A DNA stretch of 36,357 nucleotides from Psammoneis japonica (GCA_008632985.1 QPGO01000050.1:496001-532357), one strand, 5' to 3'; numbered from the stretch's first letter, positions 1 to 21,675 are shown. Numbers and translations are program-made. The notes: generated from the sequence alone by a model not told the origin.

Positions 1-849
1 TGTCCTGATCATGCCATTCTTGACCAAGCAAACAATGGCTCTGGTTCAGGACAAATCTAAAATTTGTGTTTTGAGTGCAAAACTTGAGACTTGAGATGAA
101 CAAAAAATGCAAGGTCAGACAAGAACACAATGACACCACCTGCAAACCGCAACTTGAAAATTGAAGCAGCTGACTCTGCAGCTTCCCACGCACTCCCCAG
201 AATGCCAATGGTGGCTCTTTGAGAAGACATGCAAGAAAGGTGAGCTGCTGCTGCACTGCACTGGGAAAACACTGGGGGCTTGACTTGAGACTGTTTGCCA
301 GCTCTTGTTTGCAAGCATCCTGGAAGTGCTCAGTGCAGCATGGCTCCAAAACTTGACCAAAAGAGTTTGGGCTCAACAAACATTGGTGGTGGGGTCCCTC
401 CTCATGCCCCTGTGACTGTGAGAACACCATGCCAGCACCTCAACTTCTTTCCATTTCCCAAAGGTGCAAATGCTTCCTGTGAGGCTGAAACAAAAAAGCA
501 GAGTGTTTCAAAAAGCCAATCTGTGGATCAATTGCATGGTTGATGGCTGCAAAAGAGACAAATCTCAAAGGATTCACAGGGCCAATCTTGGCAGTGGTTG
601 GCCTGTCATCTTGGCTGCAACAATGCCAGCAACAAAGACAAACCTTGTGGGTGCAGACTTTGACTTAAAATGCCACCTCTTTGAAGAAAACAATGAAAAC
701 AGAGACCAGCCAACAGCAGAAATTCAGAAACTCCATTGACCATCCATGTGTCTTCATCTGCAGCCCACACAATGAGGTGCAATCATTGCACTTCAGCTCT
801 CAACTTGGGTCTCAAAGCACTTGGGTCAATGTGGGGCTGCTGTCATTGC

Positions 850-3050
850 TGCATGGTCAGACAGTCCATGGCTGGACATCTGCTGAGCTCACTTGACCAG
901 ATCTGCACATTCTTGCAAAGCTCAACCAGCTCCTTTTCTGGCTCCACATTGAAGCTTCCATCTCCTCTCATCCTTCTTTTGAATCTCAAACAATGGGAAA
1001 AACTCTCATGACAACTGCCAGGTTGGTCAAAGCTGCCTGCGGCACTTGTGGCCATCACATGACCTGCTGATGAGCAGCTGGGAGGTGCTTTGACTCTGCC
1101 TGCATCAGCACGTTGGCTGTGTGATGAAAATGGATGCCAAGGTCAATGATGTCTACACCTTTCAGGAATGACCAAAATCCATTGTGCTCAATCAATGACT
1201 GCTGCACCACCAGGTGCAGGAAGATCATGGTCGTCTCAACCAATCATGTTGCCAAGTCTCCCTGCCAGGTCAGGACTTGGCAAACTGGCATGCAACAAGC
1301 TTGCATGTGGCCACTCTTCACTGTGGCAGTTCTCTTTCTTGTCATGGGAATCTTTCCCACCTTTGCACATCTTTGCATTTTTGTGGTGGCAGATTCTGCT
1401 GGTTCTGGCACATGCAAACCAAGCTTTTGATTTGGCCCAGTTGTTGGCTCACATCTAATTTTTCCATGCTTTGTGCACACTGTTGTGCACTTGGTCCAAG
1501 AGATGCTGGCTGGGGCTGCATTGGTGATTGATGCCACATTGAGAACAATGGCAGAAAGGAGCATTTTGCTGGTCATCAGATCATCTGCCTTTCTTTCACA
1601 GCTCATCTTTTACAGAAGCGGACATGCAGACATGTGGGGCAGCCACCAGCCCACATGCTCAAGCTCACTTGGGCCATTTTTCCAAGGCTCCACATGATGT
1701 TTGACAATGTCAAAATCTAAAAACACAGGGGCTTCCATGAACTTGGCAACACACCAGACTGTCAAACTTTGCATTTTTGAGATTGTGTTGTTCAGAGTCA
1801 TGCCAGTTGCAGGGTGGATGAGCTCCAAAAGAACAACTGCAATCATTCAACACATTTCCAATGACACAAGTGGTGCTGGTTCTGGTCCACCACCATGGCA
1901 CCAGAGGCAGGCAAGTGGCAATTGAGATGTCATTTTGCCGCTCCCAAGACATGTTGCAAAGGGCCAGCTTGTGACCATGTCTCAGCCATCAGATTGCTCA
2001 CACCCAAGAGAAGAGCAGCTTGGACATGGCTCATTTTGCATGGGATCTGCAAATTTGTTCATGAACAGGATTTTTGTGATCAACAACAGCCAATGGAGCT
2101 CAGAGCATTCCTTGCACATGCAAAAGCCATTGCCCCTCAAAACTTGGGTTGCCACTCCATGTGACCCAGTCAAAGAGGGCAAGTTGCTGCAGCACACATC
2201 ATCTCCTGTCATTTGACCTGGTGAGAAGATGTTCCTTGCTTCTTTGTGTTGCACCAGTCTCTGAAGAGCTTTTGCCTTTCCTTTAAGAACTTCCTGAAGT
2301 GTTTCTTCTTTCACAGAAAATTGCTTGAATGAAAGAGAGGTCATCATGAAAAAAAGCTTCCAGCTGATCTCTTGGCCAATGCAAGAGAGACATGAAGTGC
2401 AGCAAGTTTGGAAGATGCTCTGCCCCTGGTCTGTCAATTGCTCTTGCTGGCTCTTGCATGCCATCATCTTCCTGTGAGCACATGCTTCCATGTTCCATGT
2501 GCAAGTTTGTTGCTGACCAACGGCTCAATTGCAGGTTGCACTGCCCACCTGATTTGGCAATCAAGGGGTGTGTGCCAAAAAGGCAATGGATGCTGCCCCC
2601 AAGCATGTCCACATGAAGCAACAACATCCATGATTCTCACGATCTCAACAAGCAAGGGTGCTGGAAGCCAAGTGGCATTGTTGATGCTTTGGTTGCATCT
2701 TTTGAACATGTGTGGGATTTTCCCAACATCACGATGGAGACAGCATGGGTGCTGTGGACTTGGGCAGTGTTTTGCCATTGTCTGGAAGCAAAACAAAATG
2801 GCAAGTTCAACCAAACTGATCTAAATTAGATTTGTGTGTTTTTGCAGAGCAGAGGTCTGCCATGCTGCCAAGTCAAGGGCACAAAAGGCAGAGCTGCGCA
2901 TTTGCCTCTGAGGCCCCACCAGCCTGGAGCTGCACGGGCAGGTGACCAAAGAATTGCTGTTCTTGGCTCTCAAGATGGAGAGAGTGCATGCAAAGTTGCA
3001 AAAAGAAAATGATTTCAGTGCCTGCAAGATCACCTGCTTCAACTCATCAT
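850..3050 (-). pseudogene. Heavily decayed coding-like relic of unknown family
   Basis: Successive minus-strand ORF fragments read as protein-like (e.g. SFKQFSVKEETLQEVLKGKAKALQRLVQHKEARNIFSPG; FMEAPVFLDFDIVKHHVEPWKNGP). No family recognised and limits are approximate. Confidence 0.3.
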
Positions 3051-3056
3051 GAACTC

Positions 3057-3245
3057 ATTTGCTGTGTCTTTTTCTGAAATCACCACTTCCCTTCTTTTCA
3101 TGTCTGTTCACTTTCCTGTTGATGAGTTGTGCTGCCTTTCTTGCTGCAGTTCACAAATTAATTTGCTGCACCTTTTTCTGAAATCACAATTTCTCTTCTT
3201 CACATCTGTTCACTGTCCTCTTGATGAGTTGTGTGTTGCCCTCAT
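3057..3245. repeat. Degenerate tandem duplication, period ~104 bp
   Basis: atttgctg..ctttttctgaaatcac..tctgttcact..ttgatgagttgtg occurs from 3057 and again from 3161. Confidence 0.75.
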
Positions 3246-5012
3246 CTTGTTGTTCTCAAAGCCGCATTTGCGTGGCACATGCATGGCTGCTGCTCTCCAC
3301 AGAAAGCCAGACAAATGGGACTGAGATGCAACAAAGATGGCAAACACAAGAAAATTTGTGTTTTAAAACAACAGGTTTTGCTCTCTTTGTGACTGTTTTG
3401 GCCCTTCATGTTTCCAACTCTTGGCTGATGCTCCAAACAAATTGGTTGCCTGGGCTGTCCCAGTCACAACAATCACCACCTGGCTGAGCTTTGAGGGGCA
3501 GAACAGACATGTTGGTTTTCACCTTTGTCACTTCTGGACCCATTCTGAATTTTGGTTGCCTTGGGATTTTTTGCAGCATGCTGCACAACTTGGCAGCAGA
3601 AGCCATGGCTCTGCTGTGATGGAGCCTGTTTCTAATCTGGAAGACACAAAATTTTGACTGTTGGATTGGAGAGGCTGGTCATTTCTTGCAGTTCTTTGCA
3701 TGGTGCAAATTGGGAAAGAAACAAGCTGCAGCTGTTGCTTGTTTTCTTGCTTGGAGGAGATGAGTGTTGTTCTTCAATTTGGTGCAGTTGGCCACTTTTT
3801 AAACAGAGAGCTGGGGAGAAAAAGTTTGTCTCCATTCATGGGGAAGCCTCAAGCACTTCATCAATTGTGCCCCCATGGATGGGGTTTGGTTTGTCATTTG
3901 ACAGAGCCTGGCTGAGCCTCCTTTTGGTGCATTCCTCACATTGTGCTGAACAATTTGTGCAAGCAAAGTGTTTGCCAACAAAGCTGGGCTTGTCGAAACA
4001 CTCGCACAGCAACGGACAACAACTCAAGCTCTTGGCACCCAGGTGGGAAGGTGGTCTTGTACAATGATGCTGGACAACTCTGGCATGGGAACAGGATGTG
4101 CCTCCTGCAGTGGACAAATGACACTGGCGATTGCTGCAGTTGCACCCAGCCCACAACTCCCAGCAGCCAGGCCGTCATGCTGCTTCAAAGGCTGTGACCT
4201 CCATCTCCACACACTTGAAGCTGAACAAGGCAAGTGCAAAAACAGCTTGCAATCAAGCAAGACCTGTCATTTTTGACAACTCAAAATGTGCACATGCTTG
4301 CAAGTCTTGCTCCTGGGAGCCTGGGCTGGCTCGCCAGCATTGCATTTTGTGCGAGAGAGTGGTGTGGTGGTGGTGAGTTGCATGAGACACAAGAAGTTTG
4401 CCAGTTGGAGTGACAATCCATGTCATGAGAATGCAATCAAAGAAAGCATTCCTTGTGTTGCCATCATGGTGAAAGTGAATCAACAGCTTGGAGGAAGGGG
4501 TGCGTGCTGCCTGAGCTCTCCATGTCTCTCAAAGGAGCACTGTGTGGTGCTGTGCTGCAGAGAGAGCAGCCGAGAAAAAAGACACAAAGATGTTTGGTGT
4601 TGCACAAACAGCACAAAATGTGTTTGTTGCAGCAGTTCATTGGGTTCACCCTTGCAACTCTGCTTCTCAGCTAGTCAGGGGGGTGGACCGAGGCAAGGAG
4701 CCCCTCGACTCCTCGCACAACTTTGCTCATCCAACCTTGTGGCCTTCGAGTTCTCGTACTACAATTAGAAATCTCAAAACCTCGAACATCTCAACGGGCA
4801 TTTTGTATGACTCTTTGAGAACTTTTGGTGTTCGCATCTGTCGCCTCAACTGACAAATAACCAGCCACGAAACCGAACACTTCGAAACGCCCAAGAATGA
4901 CAGCAAATCTTTCACAGCACAACGCTCAACAGTATTACCGTACAATAACACACGCCACGCAACATTCAAGAACTTGTTACAACAAAAGCACAACAGATAC
5001 TACATTAAAACC

Positions 5013-7691
5013 ATGGAAGAAAAGAAGGAAGACAGTCCTTTGCGTAATGGCGATCATGAATACGTACAGCAGAACGAGCAAGTAGTACAAGAGCAATCAC
5101 GAAAACAACAAGAAACTTCTGCACCACGTCGCTCATTCTTCTTCGTGAGGTTGCTTCGCGTCATTTTGATTGACACTCCGCTGCTTCTCTTGTTTATTGG
5201 ATTCGTATCATCGTGGTGTATTCATCGAATTCATGACGACTTGTATGTTCCGTTCTTCAGAGCCGCCACAGTCACGGACGAACGCTTGATGAACGAACAT
5301 ACCTATTATGATCGTCTCTGTTCTCATGTCGACGTGACGGCGGACAATCTGTCGGCCCTCGTGATGAATGCCGAAAAAGACACGTCGGAGAAACTAGTCG
5401 ATACCGTTCTGACACATGGAGGTGCTGTGATTCCCAAGGTGTTAAAGCAAGACACGGTGGAAAAGCTGCGCAAATTTGTAGTGAAGCGCAACGATGAAAT
5501 TGAAGAATTGGGAGAAGCCTATCCCGTATCTCAGGGATACTTGAGATCGTCGTTTGGACTTGATGCGGCAGAAGATCCAATCGTAGCGGTAGCATTAAAG
5601 GAAGTGGCATCGAATGCACTCTTGAAACCAGGAGTGGCAGCCCTGGTGGGACCGGACCCGGCCGTGGCGGAGATTACAGTCATTACCAATTACGAGGGGT
5701 GCTATGAACAAGCGTGGCATTCCGACATTAAGATCGATGGAAATGCGGTCAAGTTTGCAAGGACCTTTACGCATTCCTACTCCTTGTTTGTTCCTTTACA
5801 AGACACAACAGCCGAAATGGGCGCTACCGAAATGTGTCCGGGAACGCATTACTGCGCCAACGAGAATCTCGCAGAAATGTGCGACAAGCACGGGATACAA
5901 CTCAGCGAGGCGTCTCCGGATGGTGTTTGGCACGCTGGAGATGGAGCGCTACTGAGTCAGATTGTTTGGCATCGAGGACAGGCACACACCGACCCAAACG
6001 CCTTGGAACGGATCCTCTTTGTGGTTACCTTTATTTCGCGTCCTCAACCAGAAATTGATCACCGACAGCTCTCACGAGGAACATACTTTCATCTCAAGTG
6101 GAACATGTGGGGACACACCTGGCAAGACTTGATGGATGCAGGCACGTCCATGGCTAAGCCTTGGTCTTACCTGCGTTGTTTGGGATTGTGGAAACCCAAG
6201 GAGCGGAATTGGGGATTTGATTTGCTCACAGCATCGGTTCTTCGGATTGCCAATAACCAGAATGGCTTTGATTCAGAGGATATTCCAGATTTTGTTTCCA
6301 ATGTTATTGAAAAGAAAATTCACTTGCCCAAGATGTTGCACGGACGCATCTTGTTCGAACACGACGATGCCTGGCAAGTCTTTTTGCAAGAAACCATTGA
6401 CAACACGTACATGTGGTTCAAGTGGGGAAATGCGGCCGTCTTGTCAATCTATGTCATTATGGTCGTGGTAGTAAGCTGTGCTGGTGTGGGACAAGATGGG
6501 CACAAGAAACGTATTGTCCCTTCCGCCTTGCTACGCCTTGCCAAGACCCATGCTTTGGTATTCTCATTGGGCTACCTGTTTGTCCGGTACGTGGAACAGT
6601 CTCATTGGGGAAGCAACATTCAAAGGGGGCGAACGTTACCGCCATCATTTCCTCCGCGTGATCCAAAGACACCATTGATCTTTTCTGGGCCAACCACGTA
6701 TCCGGAACGAAACGATATTTTGGTTGGTTCCCGGTTTGACGGTCCGTACCTTGGAGCCTTTAATGATTGGTTGGACTACCACCCGGGAAACCAAAAATTC
6801 CTTCGCCACATTCAAGAGTCAGCCAGTGCTCATGCAATGCACAGCAAGAATACTGTCTTTGCAGATTTTCTTGTTAAGGTCATTGTCGATTCCGTCGGCG
6901 GCACGCGTTTTCTACAACAGGACCATGTGAGCGGCCATTGGATGGTGATGACTGAGGAACAAGCTCAAGACTATACTAGGCGGGCGCTCATGAGACAAGC
7001 TAGTCCCTGGCTAGCAAGTGTCGACAAGGCGCTCAAGTTTCTGCTTGCCGAGTACCGGTTTGGGTTCCACCGCGGGACACGTCTTGCTCGAGACTCACAA
7101 GCGTACTTGTTGCAACTCCGAGACTTGATTTATGGTTTTCAAAAACATCCGTCGTTACCCCAACCACCGCTGGGCTTGGTTCCTCTGTTCCAAAGAGTGC
7201 AGCTGCCGTCACTCCCGTCAGTTGCGGGTTCTGTGCCAAAGCTTTCTGAGCGTCGCCGGGTTGTGAGAGAACGCACACCTTACGACTTGAACGTTGGCGA
7301 CACAATCTGGGGTAACTGGAATGGTGATGACTTGTGGTTTCAGGGTGTCCTGGCTGTAGACTATGGGAATGGCAAGTACGGTATTTCCTACGAAGACGAC
7401 TCTTTCGAAGAAGATGTACCAAAGGCCCGTATTGTCAAGCATGTTCCACTACAGAGCGGCGACCGCGTCTCTGTAAATTATCGAGGCGAAGCCGCATGGT
7501 ACATTGCAGAGGTACTTAGAGTTGGTCCCAATCGAGACATTGATGTCATTTTCGACGATGGAGAAGTTCTTCGAGACATTGACCCACTTTACTATCGCGA
7601 CGGTATTTCCATGTTTGCCAATGTCGTTGTCCTGGATCCAGAGGAAGACAAATACACCGACGTGTTGCTTGATGATCCCCCGATTGATTGA
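5013..7691 (+). CDS. Membrane-associated PhyH-like 2OG-Fe(II) dioxygenase with an HPGN (DUF6824-like) module and two C-terminal Tudor/Agenet-like repeats; single exon
   Basis: Long ORF with first ATG at 5013. Metal-binding triad HxD (QAWHSD) plus distal His (WHRGQAH), PhyH-type strands (LFVPLQDTTAEMGATEMCPGTH), and hydrophobic segments near the N-terminus and mid-protein. Also YHPGNQKF and two Tudor-like units (VGDTIWGNWNGDDLWFQG..ISYEDD; SGDRVSVNYRGEAAWYIAEV..VIFDDGE). Confidence 0.88.
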   Translation: MEEKKEDSPLRNGDHEYVQQNEQVVQEQSRKQQETSAPRRSFFFVRLLRVILIDTPLLLLFIGFVSSWCIHRIHDDLYVPFFRAATVTDERLMNEHTYYDRLCSHVDVTADNLSALVMNAEKDTSEKLVDTVLTHGGAVIPKVLKQDTVEKLRKFVVKRNDEIEELGEAYPVSQGYLRSSFGLDAAEDPIVAVALKEVASNALLKPGVAALVGPDPAVAEITVITNYEGCYEQAWHSDIKIDGNAVKFARTFTHSYSLFVPLQDTTAEMGATEMCPGTHYCANENLAEMCDKHGIQLSEASPDGVWHAGDGALLSQIVWHRGQAHTDPNALERILFVVTFISRPQPEIDHRQLSRGTYFHLKWNMWGHTWQDLMDAGTSMAKPWSYLRCLGLWKPKERNWGFDLLTASVLRIANNQNGFDSEDIPDFVSNVIEKKIHLPKMLHGRILFEHDDAWQVFLQETIDNTYMWFKWGNAAVLSIYVIMVVVVSCAGVGQDGHKKRIVPSALLRLAKTHALVFSLGYLFVRYVEQSHWGSNIQRGRTLPPSFPPRDPKTPLIFSGPTTYPERNDILVGSRFDGPYLGAFNDWLDYHPGNQKFLRHIQESASAHAMHSKNTVFADFLVKVIVDSVGGTRFLQQDHVSGHWMVMTEEQAQDYTRRALMRQASPWLASVDKALKFLLAEYRFGFHRGTRLARDSQAYLLQLRDLIYGFQKHPSLPQPPLGLVPLFQRVQLPSLPSVAGSVPKLSERRRVVRERTPYDLNVGDTIWGNWNGDDLWFQGVLAVDYGNGKYGISYEDDSFEEDVPKARIVKHVPLQSGDRVSVNYRGEAAWYIAEVLRVGPNRDIDVIFDDGEVLRDIDPLYYRDGISMFANVVVLDPEEDKYTDVLLDDPPID

Positions 7692-8120
7692 CAGATTCGT
7701 AAGGGATGGATCCGGTTTGCGTCTAAATTGTAATGAAGATATTGAGTATGAATTTTATAATTCAAGCTGTGCGTTTCTTACAATGGAGCTTCATCTCGGG
7801 CGCCACTACATACAGTAGAGCCACCCGACGTGACAAGCGCGTGGTCGCTGTCGGCACTGATGGCGAAGAAGCAAATAGTCTTTACTACCCACAGCCAACC
7901 TGTGGGGGTAAATAAATAGTGGTCCTTAGAAACTGCAGATTTCTCGATACCGCTATTCTTCCGAGACCTTTATGCTTGGCTGTTCATTCTACCGTACTAT
8001 GACACTCATCAATGCTAAGAGGCTTGCTGGATTGGTGATGTGTCACACATCGGTGAGTAGACTTAAGTACAACTTATTTGAATCTTTCTGTAGCAATCGC
8101 TATGACGTAGGTAGGGCTAC

Positions 8121-9155
8121 TCAAAATGATGCAACTGTCGACACCATACCCCCTCCACTATTTCCGCTGATGATGCCACTATCGCTCGAAGTCGTCGCTT
8201 GCAACTTCAACTCATCGTCGTCACGGCATTCTTCTTTTTCGTCAGCTGCCGATTTATCAACCTGATACAGATACACCCGTGACTGATTATTTTGCTGATT
8301 TTTGCTTGCTCCACACAAAAACTTTGAAAGTAACTTGCTTTCATCCAAGGCTGGGGCGGACATGGACCCTAATTGATAATCGGCCTGACCCGTGACAAAT
8401 TTCAAAATCAAAGGATGCTTTGACAGCCTTCCAGCGCATTCTACAAACGATGCAAGCAAGCAAGTAATGATTAGAATGTTCTCATTAGTAATGGGAGTTG
8501 TAAAAAGGGTCGATGACAATGCAATCGTTTACCATGATGAGGAATTGAGGAAGAATTCGTCGGAGCTTGGTTGAAGGTGTCATCAACCACCTCTTCCATT
8601 TCATCAAACGAAAGAATAGAATCTCCGAAGTAGCATGATGTCAGGAGAATTCCTTTTAAAGAATGGAGTTTCCAGGTTTAGGAAGATGATAAGTTTCACT
8701 GTCACAATCGGCCGCCAGCACTCAGAATGTATGGCTTACTCACCTTCTACTAGGAAGTGAAGGTTCTTCTTGTTGATTCGCTCAGAAGACGTGACATCCA
8801 TGATTTCTAACGCAAACTTAATAACAGAGTACAGATCTTGATTTGAGCATGCTAAGGGGCTAACACCTGTGCAAAAGTTGCGGTAGTTGATTCTGCTGCA
8901 ACCGTCTTCATCCCACATTGTGAAGAGCAAGTCGAAAACTTTGGCATCGTAGTTTGGGTCAAGCTTCACTTGACTCATTGCGCTTCTAAACTCGATTCTC
9001 GATAATTTAAACGATTTTCTTTCCTTTGACATTGCAATGCATACGTGAAGGAGTGCTTTGAGCTTCTTCTTGTCAAGTTTCATCGTGTGTGCCATTGCAA
9101 CCATGGCAAGAGGCCTCTTTGACCCCCCTGTCGAAAGAGGTAAAGAGTTTCCCAT
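8121..9155 (-). CDS. N-myristoylated EF-hand calcium sensor (calcineurin B/recoverin-like); exons 9155-8744, 8652-8533, 8440-8121
   Basis: Starts MGNSLP and has EF-hand loops (FTMWDEDGCSRINYRNF, IMDVTSSERINKKNL). GT-AG introns 8743-8653 and 8532-8441 join the frames as HFLVE-GILLTSCYFGDSILSFDEMEEVVDDTF..PHH-ECAGRLSKHPLILKFV. Confidence 0.85.
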
Positions 9156-9639
9156 CCTTCACATGAACACCAATACTGTAAAAGAGCAGATGGGATACGG
9201 TACGGTAGGAGGTAGGAGCTTCGTGTAGTAGAGTCGAAAGATGCCGCAGTCGTTTGTCGTTGGATAGGGCCCTCTAGCTAGAGTAGGGCTACCGTATTGA
9301 TTTTGTGAGCGAATGTTTCGATCCCAGATTAACGTGCTTATTATTATTATTATTCAGAGTTAAAGCTAATATATGCTACACTTTTTTAAATGCCTCTACT
9401 ATAAAAGTCATCATTCGCTAAAGATATTATAGTCTCATTTATATATCCAACAAGGAATAAAACCACACAAGCACTATTGCCAGGTATGAACCGGCACTAC
9501 TCGTCGACCACCCAACAAGGACGGACGTGTGTTTGTGTCGCGCAGAGTGCGTGGAGAAGACTTCATGTCAAATTCAAATCTTCAGCATCTATTGTGTAGA
9601 ATGGGTAGAATGGCTTCCTTTGGCAAAGTAGTTTGGCAA

Positions 9640-11070
9640 GCCGTGTCCAAGATGAGCATGTTACAATGCAGTCATTTGTGAGTTGCTGTGACAAAGTCTT
9701 CATCATGATGAGTGAAAAGTGTCACAGTTTTTCGCTCACGGCTGCTCCAGCTTTTCATGTGCTCAGGATGCAACAGCTCAGTGTTCTGTTGAAGCAAAGC
9801 AACAAAGTTCATGTTGGCCTGAATTGTGTGCTGATTCTCATTGCTCATTTCATCAGTTCCAGCCATCAATCCCTCGTGTGACCATCCCCAGCTTCTTGGG
9901 CCTGCTCCTCCAGTGCTGGAGGAGGAACAGAGGGTGCAGCTTCTCATTGATCAGCTCACACACAACACCTGTCGGCGACATGGACTGGGCCATCTTTGCA
10001 AGGACATGGGGCCACAGAGCTGTCAGCATGTTCAACAGGACCTCAAGATCATGGCAATGATGAGTCACAAGAACAAACATCACCATCTTGTTGTTTTGTC
10101 TGAGTGAAACAGAGCCACATCCAAAGGAGTCCTCAAGAAAATGTCTTTTTTGCACACAGATTCTTGCTTGGTGCTGTGTGTTGCAGCAAGAAACACACAG
10201 GGTGTTCATTTTCTTCTTGAAGACATGCACAATGCAGTCAGTGCAGTGGTGCACAACTTTTTTCTCCTTGCTGTGACACAATGGCACCCATCTCCAAGAG
10301 GAGCCAGGCAATTCCAAAGCAATGTCCTTGTTTCCACTGCAGTCATTGCTCATGTCATCATTGATGCTGCCCAAGAAAAGTCCAGTGCAGCAAGCAAGAG
10401 CCAATGGCATGCATCCAGGCATTCTCAATTTTTCACAATTGACATCAGTGCCACAGAACAGCAGCACTTGGACCACTGCTCTTTGTTGATGCTCAACAGC
10501 AGTGCCGTGCCAGAACCATCTGTTGTGTGCATGTCAGCACTGTTTCCAATGAGCAAGGCAGCAGCCTGTGCATGCCCTTGTGAGCTTGCGTGATGCAGAA
10601 GCATTTTCTCATTTGAAGGCATGGAGGCATTCTGGCAAACTTGTGTCTCTTGCATCAACACTTCTTGTCACACCACCACAAGACATCAGCAGCTCCACAA
10701 AATTTGCTTGTTTGCGAGGCAGGCAGCACAATGTGGAGAGCCATCCCAAGCACTCCATTGCTTCCCTCCTTTCAAACAAACAGCCACAGTCTCACCCAAG
10801 CATTCACGTGAGCTGCATGTTCCAACAAGAGGCAAACCATTGGCAGGTCTTGACCGCAAACAGCAGCGGCAAGTGGAGTCCTTCCGTCATCATCCAAAAC
10901 GTTCACATGAGAACTGCTGTTTGCTGTGACGAGATCTTGTGCTGCTTGGACATCTCTGGAACACTGTCATCAGACAAAAATCACGTTCAACAGAGAAGGC
11001 ATCTTGCATGTTCTGCTTTGGTTGTCATTGTTTTCAGTTTCTTGTTTCCAGTTTTGGCGTGACTTTGGCG
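9640..11070. other. TpA-depleted hypermutated island 2
   Basis: About 1.4 kb essentially without TA, flanked by TA-rich intergenic DNA (9300-9480 and 11120 onward). Confidence 0.9.
9920..11030 (-). pseudogene. Decayed ankyrin-repeat protein gene
   Basis: The minus strand reads HVNVLDDDGRTPLAAAVCGQDLPMVCLLLEHAAHVNA (~10910-10800), LLHHASSQGHAQAAALLIGNSADMHTTDGSGTALLLSI and VQVLLFCGTDVNCEKLRMPGCMPLALAC. It ends ALWPHVLAKM..VVCELINEKL and has multiple frameshifts and stops. Confidence 0.75.
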
Positions 11071-11362
11071 GCCCCTGCTAACACGGTAAAGATGGCGCGC
11101 GATGATGATATGAACGACGGTTAGTCGGTAAATAATAAATAATTCAAAGACCCTGATCTGAACCCTGTGTCCCAACAAGGGAGTTGTTGTTTCCATCAAA
11201 TAGTTTTCGAACGCAATCCAAGGTAAGGAGAAAGAGAACGACCGGAGTAAGAACCGACTAGCACTTAGGGTACGTTAGTTTTCGAAGCAAGAGAGTGCGC
11301 CTTTGGAGTGAATTGGAAGAATCATTCAACACCTTGAACTGAGACTATATTATACATCGCTT

Positions 11363-12691
11363 CTAATCAATAGTCAATGTTTGGCTTGATTGCTTGGTCT
11401 CGAGAAGAGCCCGGAGGTTTTCACGAACGCTGTCGGCCTTTGCCTTCAAGCTTCGATCCATCGACACCCATTTATCCAGCTGAAGTTCGATGGCTTCAGC
11501 CTTTGCGCAGAAATGGCGTTTCACGCATTCCGAAAATTCAGGATACTGACAGCGTTTTGAATCAAGTTCGCCTTTCAGAAAGTCATCCATTGCATATTGC
11601 AAGGTGTTCGAACGAACAACCTTGTTGTAGGCGGCACTTCGAGTACACCCCGATGGTGTTCCCTTCTGCCGTTCGTAACCAGGCTCGTTGAAATAGGGTT
11701 CCTGGACTAAAATAAGACCCTGAATACTTACCAACACCTGTAGCAAGGTAGATTTGTTGGAAACCCAACCGGGCCCTTGCCAAGTCCCCAAGAGACTAAG
11801 GCAAACCTTCCCGTCCTTGTAGAGGTTCGGATTGAATCTAACCCGTCCACCGCCAGTGGTCAAGAACTTGACCTTTGGTGCCTTAGCAGGATAATCATGA
11901 AGAAATACGTCAAAGAGGAAGCATCCATTGGCATAAGGAGTTCCCTCTGGACCTGTGGAGATTTTAGCAAAGGTGATAGATGCTGAGAAGGATTCCAAAC
12001 AGAGCTCCCATCAGCGAAGTACAGTACGTCACTAACCTGTAATGAGAACACGCATCAAATCCATTCTCGACTCAAGAGCCCTAACAAAGATTGAGCTGTT
12101 GGAATCCACTGGAAGATTGAGCTTGTACTCCAGCAGCTCTCCATAAATGTTATGAGCTCTGCGGAGTATCCGGCTTGGTTGATGCCGCGAGAACGAATGG
12201 CTTGCAAGAACGTCCACAAAATCAAAGCGAACCGGGCCTAAGGTCTGAAGGTAGGATCTATCGGTCTCGTTGGATCCACTTTTTGACGATTTACCACCTA
12301 GGTCAATCTCGATGGCGTCGGCAGTTGAAGGTACGGGAGACTTGAGCCGACCTTCTTTTCTGCGTCGCTTTTTCGCATGCGTCTGACTCGTAGTGTAACT
12401 ATCATCGCATAGGTCAATCACACCATCATCCTTAGGTAGAGAAGCGATCCCATATGGATTGCCCAACTGACTTGCTTTGTCACTGTCATTATCCTTAGGT
12501 AGAGAAGCGATCCCATTTGGATTTCCCAACTTGTCACCGCCGTCTTCGTCGTCGCTGCTCATCAAAAGATCCACCACTTCGATGTTTGTCGTCGAACATG
12601 ACGATTTTTGCTGTGCCGGTGGTTTCGGTTCATTGCTTTTGCAGTTCTCCTTATTGACATTCAGATCATCGTTTGTTATAGAAGACGCCAT
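11363..12691 (-). CDS. Ubiquitin-conjugating enzyme, BIRC6/UBE2O/UBE2Z-type UBC domain with a disordered N-terminus; exons 12691-12037 and 11952-11363
   Basis: [45 protein letters not shown] (catalytic Cys)..[23 protein letters not shown]. An 84-nt intron gttagt..cag lies at 12036-11953. Confidence 0.92.
12428..12530. repeat. 63-bp in-frame intragenic duplication in the E2 gene
   Basis: atccttaggtagagaagcgatccca occurs at 12428 and 12491, giving the peptides [13 protein letters not shown] and [13 protein letters not shown]. Confidence 0.9.
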
Positions 12692-12873
12692 TGTGTCAGG
12701 GATTCACGTTGACAGTGGATTGAATCAATGGGAAACGCACTGCAGCTAATCGAGCATCATTGTCGGTGCATGCCGGTCCACGCTCTGACCACCTGTCCGC
12801 CCGCCCGCGCCCGCCCCGAACCTCGTGCTTTCTGTCCGTCAGTTGTCCGCAGAGAGTGTCGTTGTGTGTTGTG

Positions 12874-13036
12874 TTCAAACATATACATGAACGAATAAAA
12901 AATCGAAAAAGCTGTACGAAATCGAAAAAACAGCACGTACATTCCAACATGCATGAACGAATAAAAAGTCAAAAAAGCTGTACAGCAAATCGGAAAAACT
13001 GCACGTACATTCAAACAAGAATGAACGTATAAAAAT
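12874..13036. repeat. Tandem repeat, ~66-68 bp unit x ~2.3
   Basis: catgaacgaataaaaa..aaaaagctgtac..aaatcg..gcacgtacattc at 12886 and 12952, with a partial third unit at ~13020. Confidence 0.85.
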
Positions 13037-13068
13037 ATAGACTCTCTCCACCCTCGAGGTTCGCCCCC

Positions 13069-16000
13069 CACCGACGGAAGTTTAAGCCAATCAGAAGAGC
13101 TTATTTCAGGTGTACACGTCGAAACCCTTAATTAAATATTTTGAAATACACATCATCTTTGTTTAACGTTTCGTTCCTCTTCTCCCGTAGACAGACACCA
13201 ACCCGACCTCAAATGGGCGCAACACACTGATGACTTCGAGTTCACTGACAAGCTCATCCCTCCATCCGACTTCAAATTTTCAACCCATTTTCGCTCTCAT
13301 TTCTCACTGAAGTTGAGCACCGCGTTGCACATGTTGTTGAGCATAAGTCCTGACGAACAACGAAAATGAAAGACTTCACCAATTGCTCCAGTAGCACCAT
13401 GGGCATTCAATCGCAGAATCGAAAGAGCCCAACGAAAAAGGCGAAGGAAAGCGCATGTTCTCGTCTCGCCCGCATCAGCACAGGCTCATCCCCATCAAAA
13501 CCAGCCCAAGGCAAGTTCAATTGAACGCATTTGGAATGGTTGACGACCGAGTTGACAATGGAAGGAAGGAATGCAAGAGATGCAAACAAGGTCCCACCTG
13601 CAAAAAGGGCCGTGACGAGACCTGTCCCCATTCAAAGCACTGCACGAAGAGTGGGATTGCGGTCGAGGCCGAGAAGAAACTCCGAGACCGTGACAACATC
13701 AGCCACAAGGTTCCAAGTGATGTGAAACACAGTGGCAGAAATTTGGACCCTTCTTTTTTTCAGCCAAGAAGCACTGTGGAATCCAAAAATGACCCTCCAC
13801 CCAACGCAAAGGACCCACCTCCGACTCCGACTGCCGTGATGACGAACGCCAGCACCACAACCAACTTGCTCGAATGCAACCCTCTCTCACCGGAAGTGCT
13901 GAAAGAAGAAGTAAAAAAGCGGATTCCAAAATTTTCTGCGAACAAGTCGGCCTGTCCAGCAAGCACACAAGCACTTGTGTCGCATCTTCACGACTTGTGC
14001 CCGTCCAGATTCAAAAGAGCGATTCGAATGACATCATTGAAGGAGACATCACGGATCGGAAGCTACAATGGTGTCAGAAGAATTTTCCTGCTGGAACTCT
14101 GTCATTCACTGTGCCACGAGATGACAAGTCCATTGCTCCAGATGCTGTGTGCTGTGAGATTGAGGGTGTCACGATTTACATTGTGCAATGGGAACTCAAT
14201 GGCATCGGCATCGAGTTGACATGTGTGGATTGCAGGGGCAGGCTCACACACCAACGATTTGATGTCAAAAGAGGCCATCCACTTGCTCCTGTTTTTGACA
14301 TCAGAGGAACTGCTGATTGGGCCAGCTCCATGTGGTGCAAATGTGACAAGTGCGGATTGTCGTGTCGCAGCAATGACGGGCGTCTCCTGCACTCTTTGCC
14401 GCTGCACCTGCAGATGGCATGCCCAGTCGATGTAAGGCATGCATTGGTAAACAACAGCTTTCACATGACAAAGACCACCACACACTGCATTGATCACATG
14501 ATGCAGCAATGTGGAAATGGCCAGGCGATTTTGGCGTTCCTACACCGAATGAGGGCGGCAGCCTGCAAGGACATGGAAATGTCCTGTTGTTCACAATCAA
14601 TCGCAGCCAAGTCTAAAAAAACAAAGGCACTTTCAGAGTTTGAAGATTGGACTGGACGATGTGGACCAACAGGAGAAAACATTCGGTCAATGTGTGATGC
14701 TGTGGCTGCCTCAGAATTGACCGAGCACGGCACCTCAGACAAGATGCATCACACGCTAGAGATGCAGTTGGTTGGGAGCAGCACAAGTGTCGCGAGTGAC
14801 CATGCTTTTGATCAGTTGAAGAACTGCTCTAAAACTGAAGCAACTGGACTCTTTGCTGTGGTGGTTGAGACCGGTGAGATTGGCTCCGCAGTTTGTGTTC
14901 CGTCCTTGGAAACCAAGGACTGTGCCCATGCAGAAGAACAATTTGCAAAACGGCCAAACGTGCATCCAAAAGTTCATTTCTCAGATGCTTGGCCGAACAA
15001 TGAATCGCTCTGGAAGGAAATGTTTGATTGTGAGATGGACTGTGTCTTGGACTGTGCACTGGATGAACCGCATCAGTCGGACTTTGCGGAAGACACACGC
15101 TGACTTCGGAAAGGCGGTTTCGGATTTGAAGCTAGCTGTGCAATGCATGGCGAGGAGCTTGATGAAGCAAGGGCAATTGAGGCGTTGGCCTCTGGCAAGC
15201 TGAATGGGAAGAAGCACACCACCAAAGAGATCCAGCAGCTCAAGGAGAGCAAGCTGTGGAAGAATTGTGCTCCCAACATTCAAAAGTGGGTGCCACCTTT
15301 GGAAGAAAGAAACAAAAATCTTGATGCGTGGTTTCAGAAGTGCAAGTGTGCCGCGTCACCTGGGGCACCACCGGCACAAGGACGATGTGACCCTGATTCT
15401 GGAAAGCCGCTCTTCACCGAGGACACAAAAGAGGCCGCAGAGAATGGAAAAAAAAAAACAGCTCCTGGTCTCTGTGAAGCAATGAGTCGGGACAAGATGC
15501 ACAGGGTGGTGCTGCCGTCGAAACACTCCAAGTCCCAATTGAACACGCACAAATCAAATGTTGGCACAGAATCAAGACTCGAAAAGTGTCACGATCTTGT
15601 CAAGAATTTTGCAAACACCGGCATGAGATCATCACTTGCCAATTGTTCATCCTTGCGAGGGACGTGTGAGCACAACTGTGACATTCGTGAACGCATTGAA
15701 ATTGATGAAATGACGCCGGAGGAACGCGCAGCGATTCCACATGCATTTCGCGGTGTGGTCGCTCACTGCAACCACAGCAGGTTGCATTTCATCAATGGGC
15801 TTGCCAGGCGTGCTGGAGTGTCACATGATGTCCACCAGAATGTTGGGCTGTTGAAGGAAGACAGTGGTGAGCGATTTTTTTCTGAGCACATGGATCAACT
15901 GGCGACGCTTGATGTGAAGGCACGTGACAACAGCAAGGACGTCAACTGGTGTCCCTTTAAACTGTGCGGGGGAGCAGCACCGAGGTCGCCGCATGCCACC

Positions 16001-16681
16001 AGATCAAATCCATGTGCCAAGAGGAGCAATGTAGAATCTATTTTGGAGCCACCAAAAAAGAAATTGGCGGTGTCAACCAATTTGGAGACACAACATGACA
16101 CAGCGTCGCGCTCCAACATGGTGGCCAGCACTGTGGAGGCGACAGCACCATGACCCGCATCCTCGACACCGACTCCTTCTGTCACAACAGCACCTCCAGC
16201 TTCCTTGCTTCAATTTAATCTGTTTGTTGTGCGGTGGGATTTGTCATGCCACCAAACAACCAGGCAATGCTGCCGCCGATCAACAATTTCTGTTGTTTCA
16301 AAGCAGCTGCTTTCCATCAGCATTTTGGGCACTGCAACGCGAGGAAGGGTTCCTCATGATCAATGGTGTTTGTTTGAGCAGTTTTAAAGCAGTTTGTGTT
16401 TCATCATGTGCAATGCCAGGACCAAAAATTAGGACCGACGGAAGACGACGGAAAACCCCCGCCATCGTCTGCATGATGTCAGCACTTCAACACTAGATTG
16501 TTGATTGCAATTTTTGTGCTTCACTTTTCCTTGCTTGTTTTGCCGCCACAAACTGCTCGAAACAACGCACTTGTGGCACCATTCAAGTCTCTTGACAGAG
16601 GCTTCCTTCTTCTCCATCTCAAAGCATTGACAAGGCTTGCTTCGCTCACCTCCCCTCCCCCCCCCCCTTCTTCCATCGGTG
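13069..16681 (+). mobile_element. Decayed DNA transposon (Mutator-like DDE); ends tentative
   Basis: Contains the transposase relic listed next. Candidate 12-bp inverted termini are CACCGACGGAAG (13069-13080) and CTTCCATCGGTG (16670-16681), each flanked by a C-run. Confidence 0.5.
13399..16153 (+). pseudogene. Frameshifted, hypermutated transposase-like gene (Mutator-type D..D..H..E arrangement)
   Basis: ORFs 13455-14219, 13874-15103, 14853-15203 and 15143-16153 join through frameshifts near 14020, 15050 and 15140. Motifs: CxxC pairs (CVDC, CDKC), VASDHAF, FSDAWP, HWMNRI and GTESRLEKCH..FANTGM. Superfamily assignment is by motif spacing only. Confidence 0.65.
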
Positions 16682-17789
16682 CCCCCCAATTTTCAGCAGT
16701 GGGGCCCTGCAGTGCAGCGTCTCCACCCACCCATGCACAACCTGAAACCCACGCATCGCGGCAATGGGCGATGGCAATTGGCTTTTGCGGGGGCTTTGCA
16801 TTGCTTTTCAATAGAGCTGAAAGGAACACCGGTGCTGTGCAGTGCGTTGTTGCTGTCAGATCAACATGCAAGAAAATGACAGCCACACAAACAGATGGAC
16901 ACGAGAGCACCATGTGCACAAACTTCTGAACAGTTGAAAAGCGTGGACTTTCATGTGGCATTTGTGCACAACACAACATGAACACTGCCATTTGTTCTGG
17001 CAAGAGCCGTTGTCGTCAAACAAAGGTGCACATGAAATCCAGTGCAAAATGTCTGACCGGCACAACAGGTGCGTTCATCTGTGCACAGCCCAACATGGTT
17101 TTGATTGGTGTTGGTTGGTTTTGTCACTGGAGATTCGCTCCCCAGCAGTGCATGCCAGCACATTTTAACACATTGTCACACCGCCACAGTGCTTCTGAAT
17201 GTTGAGGAGTGACTTTTGAGTGACGAAACCAAGCAACACCAATCCAAACCTTTACAATCATCAGCAGAAAATGCAGACGTTCAGCGCGACTCTGCGCACG
17301 TGCTTTTTCTGCATTTTTTGACAGGTTGCAGGTTTGGATTGGTGTTGGACGGTGTTCCTTCTTCACCGAGGAGATCCATTTCCCAGCGCTCAGATTTGCC
17401 ACAGCGCTGCATGTTTGCAAAAAACTGCAGCACTTCCGAATGCCGGAGAGCGAATCTAGAGTGAAGAACAGAAGCATGAACAGACGGTGAAGCCATGGCG
17501 CATCATTTACAATGACCCTGCCCACTGGCATCTCACTGTCGGTCATGGCCGTTTGTTTTCTGTGGATGGTTGACAGGTTGTGCCGGCATGTTGTCCTCGG
17601 TCGCCTGTCATTCTGCTGCTCTTCTGTCATCGCTGGCAAGCATTCCATGTCTGCCATTGCCGGCATTCATGCTCATGAGATTGCAGCATTGACTCTCGTG
17701 GCAACCCCATGGTCGGTTGGTGACAATGGCCTCCGTTCAAACGCAGCGCCCCCATCATTTTCATTGTTTGCAACAACAACAACAATGCT

Positions 17790-17853
17790 GACACACAGCA
17801 GAGGCATCATGTGCTGACCGACACACAGCAGAGGCAACATGTTGTGCTGACTG
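17790..17853. repeat. Short tandem duplication (~30-33 bp x 2)
   Basis: gacacacagcagaggcatcatgtgctgacc followed by gacacacagcagaggcaacatgttgtgctgactg. Confidence 0.8.
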
Positions 17854-20800
17854 ATGATTGAACTTGTGGCAGTGGTTGTCAATGCTGCAGCCTCGTGTTG
17901 TGGCTGCATCAACAAGGACAACAAGAAGAACAAGAAGATCATGAGGTCGCCATGCACTGGAGCCACTTGCACATGCAAGCCCAAATGCAAGGACAATGTG
18001 ACAAACACATCCAATGATGCTGAATCATCATCAAGAAGTTGTCCATGAGCCTTTGATTTTTCACATGTCCACTGCATCTCACAAGTTCTAAGCAGTGGCA
18101 TGGAAACGCGTGTGTGTCTCTTCGTTGTTGTCCTGCAATGGATTTGTCTTTCTTGGAGAATTGCCGTTGTTCTTGCGTTTGCTGCAAAATGGCTCTCTGT
18201 TTTTTTTTTCAAGAAATGTGCTCACTCACTCACGGATTTGGCTGTCTCTCATTGCAATCTGGGTTTTCAGTCCACGCTGCAATTCGTTGTGTCTCATTGG
18301 CATCCACATGAGGCGTGGTTGAACCACAGCACTCAGATTCGAAGCGAACGAAGTGTGGGATCTCATTTTGGATCTGGTGACGCGAGTTTCCAATTTTTCC
18401 AGATTTCCACTTGGTTGCATCGATTTTGCACCTCAAGTGCACTGCAGATGCTCCAGCAGTGAACCACAAGTCAAGAAGGCAAGATGGTGTGATGACAGTG
18501 TGTTGATTGTGAATTTGTTGACTCACTCAATGGGGTTTGTACGTTGTGCAGGATGTCATGGAAAGTCACAGGAAAAGCACCTCCTGCTGCCAGCATGAAA
18601 CAGATGCAGTTGCAGTTGCAAGCATGAGCTGAATTGTTTTTTGTCACATGTTTTCAAGTGGGGGCATTGACAGCACCTCAGTGCCTTCTGCCATTGCCAG
18701 CAGGCTTTGAGCAGATGGTCAAAGAGCCTCTGCCCTGCAACACTGCCATGCAAGAACTGGCCAATGATTGACACCCCCCCCCCCCCCCACTGTGATGCTG
18801 ACCCAAAGGCAGACTTTAGCAAGTGGACAAAGCCAATGGACATTGCCAGAGAAATCAGCCTTTGCATCGACAATCCACCACTGCAGCTGCATTCTGGAAG
18901 CTTGATCAAGATGTTTCCGTCTTCCAGCGAAGAAGGCGGAATGACACTCCACTTGGTGAGACAGATGAGCTTGTCCATTGCAAGCTGGTTGCCATGCTTG
19001 ATTGCCAAGCTGAAATCTGGCAACTGCACCACAAGCGCCACCATCAAGAGGGAATGTCCCTGCGATGCAGACTGAGGCTCATTGGAGCAAACAACCCAGC
19101 CTGCTGCATCTGGATTGGATCCTAGTCCTGCTGCACTTTCCAGACAAGATGCACTGCAAAAACTCTGCAGTGCCTGTCGTCATTGGTCGCAACCATTTTC
19201 CATTTGGAAAAGTGCACGAGCAACCTTTCCCAAAGTCGCCAATTTCATGCTGGTGCTGCCAATGGAGTTCATCACTTGGTGCCCGCATGCTGAAGCTGGT
19301 CTCGCTCTGTGATGGAAATGTGAACACCTGGACATTTCACCCTTCAATGTTGTTTCCTTTTGCAGGTGGGTGGTGGAGTGAGAACCAAGGATTGCACATC
19401 GTGCGAGAGATGACCAAGCCCATTGTGCAGATGTTGCTCTCAAGAAAGGGTCATTTTTTGCTGCAAGGCAGTGCAACACTTCTTGTGGAGGTGCTTGATC
19501 AGAACTTGCTTCTTCTGAAAATCGTGTCTTTTGAATCATTGCTCACGTCGTGTTTGTTGGCTGCTTTTTGTGCCGGACTGCTGATTCCGCCATGACGAGC
19601 CGTCCTTCCATGCGATTTCATGCTGCTGTCCTTTGTCCCAAAGGCGGTCTGCATGCTTGGGTCGACAGGTGAAATGGGGTCATGACAATGTCAAAGCAGG
19701 GATGGAACAATGGACGTGCACGAGAAGGACGCACACCCAAAACAAACCATTGCCACCTTTTGCATTCGTTGTTGACATGCTCTCTGGATGGCACCATCGC
19801 ATGGAGGTTGTGAAACAAATCATGGTCGCTGGATGTGAAGAAGAGAGTGACAGCCACAAGAAAAGACCATGGAACCATGCAACAAGTGAAGAAACATCAA
19901 AGCCTTGAGGATTCTTTGTTGACATGCTGCCAATCTGCTGTTCTGTGAAGCCTTTTCAGCTTGCACAATGTGCTCTAAGCTGCATGATGGGAGAGCTTCA
20001 TCCCAAACCATTGCCTGCCAATGAACAAAATGCTTTCCACTGTTCTGCCACCTCAGATGCTCCTGCAACTGATTGGACGGACAAAACTTGTTGCCCAACA
20101 ATTGCCTCATCTTGCCAGGCATTTCCCACCACACGACTCTTGGTTGTGAGTGCTCACAAATCCACATGCCCTGCGATGCAGTCCAAAGTGGTCTCATCTT
20201 TGCTCTCTTTTTGATGGCAGTCGGAGCACCGCGGGTGCAGCCGGTGTCGCCTTTTGGTCATGACTTGCAAGCTCACATGACAGATGCCTGCCCCCTTCCT
20301 GTCTCAAAATGAAAAGCAGTGACTTGTGGGTTTCTGATGGATTTGCTTTGGGGCACCCTGCGCACAGTGTAACTTGCCTTGTCCTTTGGACATGGTGGGG
20401 AGATTTGCGACCCATTCAATGCCAAGGAAGCCTTGACACAAGCACTGCCAGGTTTTGACATGCAGCTCTTTCTCCCAAACATGTCCACATGCAGAATTCT
20501 GTCCCATGTGATTTGGCCAGCACAGCAAGAGGCTTGCAATGAGCGGTTCCTGAGTCTTGGCTGTCACAATTTCGAGCAAACAATGGAAAGTTTGAGCCAC
20601 TCTATCCAGCGTTTAAGAGGGAGGCATCCATTTTTCTCCCTCTGACAGAATTCAGAATGCCTCTTTGGAATCATCTGTGCTTGGTCATCAATTTTGCTGA
20701 CGAGCTGGATTTCATGGCAATTTGATCCAAAGCAACTGTGGCATCCTCTGACATTGGCGTTTTTAAATGACAATGAACCAGTGTTTTTGTCAAGAGACTG

Positions 20801-21645
20801 CGCTTGTGCTGATGACTTGGATGCAACAAGCATGGCCTCAAGTCGCCGTGGCTGCAACATTGTCTCGAGAAAATGTGACACGCCGGTTTTAATCTCGTGG
20901 GATCATTGCAGTTTGCCGACACATTGGTCACACGTGGTCTTGGTTGCAAATGTCCATCCTGCCAAAGATGCTGGGCGGACGACAGATTCGATGATGTCTT
21001 GAGAGAATTGCAGCTGTGGGAATTGCACCATGCCTTTGTTGGAGCTGTTGAAATGAGCAGCGGAGAGTGAAAGGACGATGCCTTGTGTTCCTTCATGCTG
21101 CACAGACCAACCTGAAGGAAAGGAGCCATTCAAGTGCACATGCTTCGATGGGAAAAGGCAGAAACCACAGCAGCCAGATTAAATTTTTTCAATTGCATGC
21201 GAAACAATGTTTTTCCCTTTGTTTTTAGCCGACCGACCAAGCATCTGAAGCGTCTTTGTTTCCTTTTGCACTGCAGGCAATGAACATCATTGACGTCAGC
21301 AATGGCAGTGGTGCTGCTGCTGAAAGCGGAGATGTGGCTCTGGATGACAATGTTCTCCATTGTCGCCGCACAAGGAGAATTTCGAGCTCAAAGAAGAACA
21401 GCCTCTTTTCGAACAGCAAAAAGAGAATGTTGCGATTCTTCGGTTTTCTAAGAGATGCAGCGTCTGATGAAAAATCGCAAGAGAAAGCAAGTTTGGTGTC
21501 AACAAGGACAACAAATGAGATGTTGATTGCTGCCTTGCATGCCTCAGGCAACTGGTGAGAACTGAGTGGGAAATCCCTGGGAGACACAACAGCAAATGAT
21601 GCCGAGAACTGAGCTTGGAATTGGTGGGGTTTTCTGTGACATTGC

Positions 21646-21675
21646 TGACATGACCATTCCTGACATGACCATTCC
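21646..21675. repeat. Perfect 15-bp tandem duplication
   Basis: tgacatgaccattcc x 2. Confidence 0.85.

Follow-up and report, generated by a model that had tools for sequence, protein, structure and literature searches.

Repeat-induced point mutation (RIP) in filamentous fungi, which depends on RID or DIM-2, changes C to T mainly at CpA, creating TpA and lowering the GC content. To our knowledge, all DNA hypermutation described so far in genome defence or innate immunity (RIP, APOBEC, methyl-CpG decay) runs from C to T in this way, and we know of no natural defence that deaminates adenine in genomic DNA. The natural site of TadA is U-A-C-G in the tRNA anticodon loop, with natural TadA and ADAT2-ADAT3 acting on tRNA and the activity on DNA being engineered; ADAR has a weak 5' preference (U>A>C>G) and favours G at position +1; and CTAG is the depleted word in the case of bacterial Vsr. 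Here we describe a stretch of 36,357 nucleotides from Psammoneis japonica (GCA_008632985.1, QPGO01000050.1:496001-532357; hereafter referred to as the window), in which three domains, one of them carrying a decayed element with a multi-copy protein gene, have lost nearly all of their 5'-TA-3' dinucleotides. We consider it probable that these domains are silent, transposon-derived DNA and that a mutator whose specific target is the A:T pair of 5'-TA-3' has acted on them.

The 36.4-kb window is made up of two alternating kinds of DNA that are alike in GC content (0.42-0.52). Three stretches are poor in TA, at 1-4671 (D1), 9663-11078 (D2) and 13393-29036 (D3), none of them assigned to a strand, and counts of TA per 500 nt are 0-6 inside these domains vs. 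10-44 outside, while TG + CA is approximately doubled inside at the same GC. In total, 65 TA sites are found in 21,735 nt of TA-poor DNA and 606 in 14,629 nt of normal DNA, and TpA stands at 0.00-0.18 of expectation within the TA-poor domains, where GC is 0.45-0.50. The change from one kind of DNA to the other takes place within tens of bases, with a sharp step to normal TA and CG density at 4672. D1, which is truncated by the start of the window, retains 14 TA and ~21 CG in 4.67 kb (TG + CA at ~1.4-2.2 times expectation, GC 0.45-0.49), and D2 has zero TA and few CG in its 1,416 nt. We divided D3 at position 21500, a choice of our own based on the CpG level, into D3a (13393-21500), the “less decayed” part with 35 TA in 8.1 kb and CpG at 0.45-0.85 of expectation, and D3b (21501-29036), with 16 TA in 7.5 kb and CpG at 0.04-0.30 of expectation, which appears to be a section of this island that has decayed for longer.

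The TA sites that survive are far from a random sample. A preliminary description of this DNA had located 14 of them in 1-4671 and had read from their flanks a 5'-TAY preference acting on both strands, with YTAR spared (Y, pyrimidine; R, purine). All 14 (spanning 58-4061) lie at the positions it gave, and 11 of them are YTAR, namely CTAA at 58, 1456, 1718, 2822 and 3633, TTAA at 666, 2284, 3159, 3364 and 3800, and TTAG at 2827, the remaining three being the TAC sites CTAC at 1154, TTAC at 1611 and GTAC at 4060. This share of 11/14 in D1 alone compares with 18% of TA sites in normal DNA (binomial p = 1.6e-6). D3a holds 21 YTAR sites, 13 one-sided sites (YTAY or RTAR) and 1 RTAY among its 35, and D3b holds 11, 5 and 0 among its 16, so that D1, D3a and D3b are each biased to YTAR separately, with D2 lacking any TA. 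Pooled over the poor domains, the counts of YTAR, one-sided and RTAY sites are 43/20/2 vs. 111/323/172 in normal DNA (chi-square p = 7.5e-18), which rejects the possibility that all NTAN tetramers are depleted equally. Normalized for length, survival is 0.008 for RTAY (2 sites in TA-poor DNA vs. 172 in normal DNA), 0.040 for RTAR (9 vs. 151), 0.043 for YTAY (11 vs. 172) and 0.26 for YTAR (43 vs. 111), which is the order RTAY < RTAR = YTAY < YTAR that had been predicted. The bias also holds against plain base composition (1:2:1, p = 4.8e-14), against normal DNA minus its four clearest coding spans (p = 2.6e-14) and against L001, an intact metagenome relative of the element (p = 9.4e-8). As had likewise been suggested, one-sided sites outlast more in the less decayed element, with 13/35 in D3a vs. 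2/14 in D1.

While the order of the classes and the independence of the strands were borne out, the 5'-TAY preference turned out to be incomplete, with the base at +2 equally strong, and YTAR as a class is not spared but depleted approximately fourfold. At the +2 position, A is found in 65% of surviving half-sites vs. 27% in normal DNA, and at +1 the survivors have A.51, G.31, C.14 and T.05 vs..24/.21/.29/.26 in normal DNA. Half-site survival is 0.31 for TAAA, 0.21 for TAGA and 0.11 for TACA, 0.02-0.10 for TARB (B, any base but A), 0.024 for TATA and 0-0.018 for TAYB. TACA therefore survives ~10 times better than TACB (0.107 vs. 0.006-0.010). The word TYTARA, in which both half-sites read R-A, has been left nearly intact, with 16 occurrences in the poor domains and as many in the normal DNA, which is the shorter of the two (survival 0.67), and YTAR without A at +2 on both sides is depleted 3- to 11-fold. 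CTAG ranks with the words that survive best, occurring 5 times in the domains and 23 times outside them, in normal DNA (ratio 0.22).

To describe both features together, we used a Poisson model in which each strand adds a rate fixed by its own 3' flank. The Akaike information criterion is 220.9 for uniform depletion, 149.9 for TAY only, 138.5 for non-A at +2 only and 83.3 for both binary features. The best model has, per half-site, a baseline of −0.02, with coefficients of 1.51 for Y at +1 and 1.48 for non-A at +2, and a full four-letter model gives no significant gain over the two binary features (p = 0.12). It is thus very unlikely that a 5'-TAY preference on both strands that spares YTAR is the whole story. 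Such a rule does predict the three-class order and its multiplicative spacing, since a one-parameter TAY model (M1 coefficients) predicts survival of 0.008 / 0.043 / 0.23, as fits independent action on the two strands, and it improves greatly on uniform depletion (likelihood ratio 73.0, p = 1.3e-17). However, non-A at +2 alone explains slightly more (likelihood ratio 84.4) and both terms are needed (68.6 and 57.2, the former for the +2 term added to the TAY-only model, 1 df, p = 1.2e-16), and neither the depletion of YTAR sites lacking A at +2 on both sides nor the longer life of TACA over TACB is expected from it. The pair classes match the product of their half-site factors, and survival relative to a composition-based expectation is 1.03 / 0.25 / 0.057 / 0.003 / 0 at sites with 0-4 hot features, a steep fall that recurs separately in D1, D3a and D3b. 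The 14 TA sites of D1 comprise five with no hot feature (TYTARA), seven with one and two with two. Richness in A/T is not the cause of TA loss, because T at +1 and +2 is erased most strongly, and normal DNA has no deficit of hot-context TA (107 observed vs. 83 expected).

Several surviving TAs of D1, at 58, 1718, 2822 and 3350-3364, lie in similar words, e.g., AAATCTAAAA, adjoining ATTTGTGTTTT-like runs, which may reflect the protected TYTARA context alone or a short repeated motif. D1 also contains a direct repeat of ~75 nt (3057-3131 and 3161-3233, 84% identical) with the surviving TTAA at 3159 between its copies. A tandem duplication of ~195 nt (25845-26039 and 26041-26238, 88.6% identical) is present in the TA-poor island D3.

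The direction of change can be followed in the dinucleotides that have taken the place of TA. Among the trinucleotides without TA or CG, none is below 0.78 of its normal frequency, and all TG/CA trinucleotides are up; in D3a, the TG/CA gain of 32.4 per 1000 tetramers approximately balances the loss of TA + CG sites at 28.7. The increase is 2.02-fold for TGC/GCA and 1.53-fold for TGT/ACA vs. 1.33-fold for TGA and 1.34-fold for TGG, and the base 5' of TG has no effect on the gain, which is concentrated in YTGY/RCAR and RTGY, not RTGR (12.3 for YTGY/RCAR vs. 5.6 for RTGR/YCAY). Since the gain is found on the 3' side, TAY has mostly become TGY, and a change of A to G on the strand with the hot 3' flank is a change of RTA to RCA on the partner strand. 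With the fitted rates, the orientation that places A>G beside the hot 3' flank has a log-likelihood 2.81 units above that of the reverse orientation. Both strands have been hit, as TG and CA occur in balance (mean z −0.07 to −0.19). The over-dispersion of TG vs. CA is mild (variance 1.3-1.95 vs. 1.0-1.2 in normal DNA), too weak for a claim of processive action on single strands.

A protein-level record of these changes is found at 13398-16207 on the plus strand of D3a, in a pseudogene of a ~1,000-aa multi-copy, DUF6729-like protein. Its residues match at 13398-13928 (frame 3) and at 13952-16207 (frame 2), with a single in-frame TGA at 15101-15103. Its protein has 471 homologues at E <= 0.001 (best 4.7e-71, 43% identity). 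At the 20 columns where Tyr is conserved, the pseudogene keeps Tyr in 0/20, with 11 TGY (Cys), 5 CAY (His) and 4 other codons, while conserved Ile, Val, Leu and Asn columns are 58-78% kept (the Ile, Val and Leu columns are too few to bear on direction). All 5/5 His codons are preceded by a purine, so that the opposite strand read TAY too, and where the codon is preceded by a pyrimidine it became Cys in 4/4 cases.

Metagenome contigs of JGI and ENA encode twelve homologues in which Tyr makes up at most 1% of the residues. Among these are seven cluster representatives out of 150 (P0008, P0081, P0096, P0107, P0110, P0115 and P0139), which have at most 0.8% Tyr with Cys and His raised and are known as proteins only, from metagenome contigs of 1.6-9.6 kb. 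Over 151 cells at conserved-Tyr columns, the Tyr-poor homologues show 58 Cys, 47 His and 9 Tyr, numbers that come partly from members of a shared 90% cluster and are thus not all independent. As these environmental relatives are Tyr-poor and rich in Cys and His, the same hypermutation seems to occur in them. A metagenome scan for DNA of the family returned one locus, L001, which is intact with TA at 0.70 of expectation, and a scan of viral contigs returned none.

As for the identity of the element, Pfam searches with 22 family members gave one weak DUF6729 match and one weak zinc-ribbon match, and in a protein atlas the family falls within DUF6729 clusters, where Mutator/MULE transposases come up as remote leads; the family is a possible Mutator/MULE-related transposase by sequence likeness, which we treat as a lead only. 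No reverse-transcriptase match was found by Pfam in the affected ORF (open reading frame) family, a profile search against PDB sequences gave nothing (best E = 0.87), and a word-based search with the pseudogene ORF gave 0/1,901 candidates (239-763 aa) at E <= 1e-10. Pfam found nothing at E <= 0.1 in 15 stop-to-stop ORFs of D1 except one chance-level match, and nothing above chance in 25 ORFs of D3 or in 19 ORFs of D1 + D2. Neither 13.2-18.2 kb nor D2 is bordered by convincing terminal inverted repeats, and comparison of the window with itself by blastn gave no similarity between domains, only four short tandem or direct repeats.

The loss of CpG in the same domains is a separate process. In D1, D2 and D3b, only 0.04-0.3 of the expected CpG is left, and in D3a ~95% of TA is gone vs. 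only ~40% of CpG. Unlike TA, CpG has no comparable dependence on its flanks, with survival of 0.11-0.18 at all flanking bases in the old domains and 0.53-0.75 in D3a. Because CpG is high in the first 8 kb and low in the next 7.5 kb of one island, the losses of TA and CpG are separable, and the older domains have lost their CpG by ordinary decay of the methyl-CpG type, a second and slower clock; together the two losses could act as two clocks for the dating of insertions. Among the remaining CpG sites of D1 and D2, depletion is strongest for YCGR (0.03 and 0.05 vs. 0.09-0.29 for the other classes), the reverse of what is seen at TA, with YTAR as the class that survives best, although the numbers are small (~21 CG in D1).

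In another alternative, no dedicated enzyme is involved, and TA decays spontaneously or by damage, in a context-dependent manner, in silent and unrepaired chromatin, e.g., through a TpA lesion that escapes transcription-coupled repair. The domains do look silent and are sharply bounded, and CpG decay, itself a spontaneous process, runs within them. We nevertheless regard this alternative as highly improbable, as the loss is near-complete at one dinucleotide only, follows an asymmetric flank rule of two bases and is faster than the loss of CpG. Dipyrimidine (UV-type) targets are not depleted, because no other trinucleotide is below 0.78, and we know of no spontaneous TA-specific transition process of such a kind.

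Contigs from two sequencing runs of one sample, X1 and X2, were compared with the window. One X1 contig with a depth of ~61 covers 1-4041 of D1 with 16 differences (~99.6% likeness). At 13.3-17.3 kb, the summed X1 depth is ~190-260 vs. ~55-60 for single-copy DNA, and the X1 pieces represent several copies that are 80-95% alike and differ mainly by transitions; D2 has further X1 copies at lower likeness with a summed depth of 77-130. X2 resembles RNA contigs in skipping an 84-nt intron, and its cover over D1 and 13.3-17.3 kb is little or none, which is not used as evidence on expression. An artefact of base-calling or assembly at modified bases, or foreign DNA that has always avoided TA and CG, would either way give an excess of TG/CA at the same GC, and the stretch has been found in one sample only. 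Both are scarcely credible: the word-based X1 contigs (depth ~55-60) yield the same D1 sequence over 4,041 nt but for 16 differences, Tyr-poor relatives occur in several other JGI and ENA assemblies, the conversion of conserved Tyr codons to Cys or His is a change from a TA-bearing ancestor, and the graded decay is unequal between domains.

Of the 14 listed positions at which the X1 contig departs from the window, 6 are CG<->TG/CA and 3 are TA<->TG/CA (1154, 2947 and 3554), and both TA alleles carried by X1 are in YTAR context. Ongoing activity is not claimed from these D1 polymorphisms, as they are mostly transitions at the abundant TG/CA with no outgroup to give direction.

The mechanism that we propose for the TA-poor domains can be stated in terms of the kinetics at each strand. 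The mutator would act on each strand independently and would change the A of TA to G, i.e., T to C on the partner, at a rate fixed by the two bases 3' of the A, with TAYB hottest, TARB and TAYA at about half that rate and TARA at approximately zero. Its double-strand target would be the asymmetric four-base word TAYB/VRTA (V, any base but T), and TA would persist only in TYTARA because both strands must read TARA. The mutator would also be directed at transposons or at their chromatin. The sequence data establish the erasure, its direction, its two-base context, its independence on the two strands, its restriction to sharply bounded domains and its separateness from the decay of CpG; from these facts, we infer that the erasure is caused by a sequence-reading enzyme and that silenced or repeated DNA is targeted as a form of genome defence. 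With regard to the chemistry, we lean slightly toward adenine to inosine deamination in DNA, which is a guess, the main alternative being that the thymine opposite is oxidized to a base that pairs with G; the attacked base of the A:T pair is not readable from the sequence, because TAYB and VRTA are the two strands of a single word.

In its specific form, this alternative supposes that the thymine of TpA is modified by a dioxygenase of the TET/JBP type to 5-hydroxymethyluracil (5hmU) or 5-formyluracil as a silencing mark on transposons, with mutation as a side effect via pairing with G. 5-Formyluracil pairs with G. The context of the modification would read 5'-VR[T]A-3', and the process would be the thymine counterpart of 5-methylcytosine decay at CpG. 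It fits the same data as an attack on A, and a standing mark would explain the age-linked erosion, in which one-sided sites are 13/35 in D3a vs. 7/30 in D1 + D3b. On the other hand, the loss of TA in D3a is ~sixfold ahead of that of CpG, which is fast for a weakly mutagenic mark, and we know of no 5hmU or TET/JBP gene in diatoms. Dinoflagellates, likewise members of the SAR group, are reported to have a TET/JBP homologue that makes 5hmU, enriched in repeats and silencing transposons (PMC11572971), and a second source refers to an early report of 5hmU preferentially in TA and TC contexts in Crypthecodinium, but also to a base-resolution 5hmU map of Breviolum without a sequence motif (PMC11071213). 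Taken together, we consider a thymine mark to be possible but rather unlikely.

Several points weigh against the reading of these domains as targets of a TA-specific mutator. The evidence for it is DNA sequence, in which no responsible enzyme, gene or modified base was seen, and the context model is carried by only 65 surviving sites, with proxies standing in for the ancestor (normal DNA from elsewhere in the window, base composition and a single intact relative of 1.8 kb). Surviving TAs may in part be back-mutations at equilibrium, which would affect the wording of the rule and not the forward context dependence. The test of direction is indirect and modest. The ratio of Cys to His is 11:5 here and ~35:30 over the Tyr-poor metagenome homologues when counted once per 90% cluster, which fits the ~0.6 of the two-strand model but is no proof of it. 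D1 looks single-copy in X1, so that a dependence of the erasure on repetition is at most a possibility. Finally, the metagenome and viral-contig scans gave no second hypermutated DNA locus, and the nucleotide rule thus rests on this window.

The normal DNA that served as reference in the window carries eukaryotic genes, namely those of a ubiquitin-conjugating enzyme, a Rieske protein and a DUF6824 protein; like the domains, its segments are not assigned to a strand. The segment at 4672-9662 is covered by contigs of both X1 and X2 and contains an uninterrupted ORF of 905 aa on the plus strand at 4974-7691, with a DUF6824 domain (E = 5e-7) and a match to PhyH dioxygenase that stays below threshold (E = 4e-4), over which an X2 contig spans 4959-7720. 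The segment at 11079-13392 holds the ubiquitin-conjugating-enzyme gene on the minus strand, with its 84-nt intron at 11951-12034 being the one jumped by the X2 contig, which marks the genome as eukaryotic, and tandem repeats at 12424-12531 (45 nt, 93%) and 12883-13035 (87 nt, 87%) lie beside and within the region of this gene. The segment at 29037-36357 carries a Rieske-domain ORF on the plus strand at 31154-31948, for which diatom proteins (45-53% identity) are the sole relatives with a name. Judged by these genes, the organism is diatom-like. Two patches of the normal DNA, 9330-9500 and 33001-33500, are rich in TA (44 and 42 per 500 nt, ~1.0 of expectation), the first of them lying ~160 nt before the start of D2.

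Taking the chemistry and the environmental relatives together, we tentatively put forward, with somewhat less assurance than the origin of the domains themselves, a natural sequence-specific mutator of double-stranded genomic DNA that would convert A:T to G:C at 5'-TAYB-3' and would be aimed at transposons, in diatoms or at least in this lineage and the organisms behind the Tyr-poor homologues. The agent would be either the first natural eukaryotic DNA adenine deaminase to act on its own genome or a mutagenic thymine modification. In the literature searched, with most subscription journals outside the search, we found no description, for diatoms or any other algae, of TpA erasure or of transposons hypermutated from A:T to G:C, and the process is probably a new variant of transposon-directed hypermutation whose chemistry is undescribed there. 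If so, it would represent a new mutational chemistry for the silencing of transposons, opposite to that of fungal RIP and with a readable four-base target, and would explain GC-neutral, TG/CA-rich “dead” islands in diatom genomes, which are missed by RIP indices as well as by repeat finders that rely on similarity. Such a process would moreover imply an enzyme of practical value, a natural A-to-G or T-to-C DNA editor. The context rule, with TAYB hot and TARA immune, can serve as a signature for genome scans, as a test of candidate enzymes and, via the decay of one-sided sites, for the dating of insertions.

Among the known systems, RIP is similar in that dinucleotide-directed transitions wreck transposon copies on both strands in sharp segments while neighbouring genes are untouched. 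It differs in its defining chemistry, for which reason we reject it here: TpA is destroyed rather than created (0.00-0.18 of expectation, with TG/CA ~doubled), the change is from A:T to G:C at unchanged GC and in TAYB context, and the TAY codons of Tyr have become TGY or CAY. Diatoms do have DNMT4 enzymes related to RID, described as being of unknown function (PMC9998398), and these could be relevant to the CpG part, not to TA. The decay of methylated CpG likewise yields TG/CA from a self-complementary pyrimidine-purine step and is present in the same domains, but it spares TA, has no comparable flank rule and lags behind the loss of TA in D3a, so that its pattern is found for the CpG part only and cannot account for the loss of TA. 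APOBEC-type conversion of C to U on single strands is rejected, as the change is at A:T pairs with TG and CA balanced, and so is loss of CTAG of the Vsr type, as CTAG is among the best survivors here. ADAR-type editing shares clustered A-to-G change and some 5' U preference; however, it acts on RNA, and the element affected here looks like a DNA transposon without reverse transcriptase. We reject it because only TA is lost, with AA, CA and GA not depleted, and because Y is favoured and G disfavoured at +1. The 5hmU of dinoflagellates is a thymine-directed, repeat-enriched silencing mark in related protists with an old report of TpA/TpC preference, but it is described as an epigenetic mark and not as a mutator, and in Breviolum it is without a motif (PMC11572971, PMC11071213). 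TadA/ADAT, together with the DNA adenine base editors derived from them, convert A to I (read as G) after U or T, and U-A-C-G resembles T-A-Y-B; no gene of this type was seen here, and their pattern, and the pattern only, is found in the loss of TA, the change of TAY to TGY and the favouring of Y at +1 and non-A at +2, while their substrate is tRNA and here it is genomic DNA.

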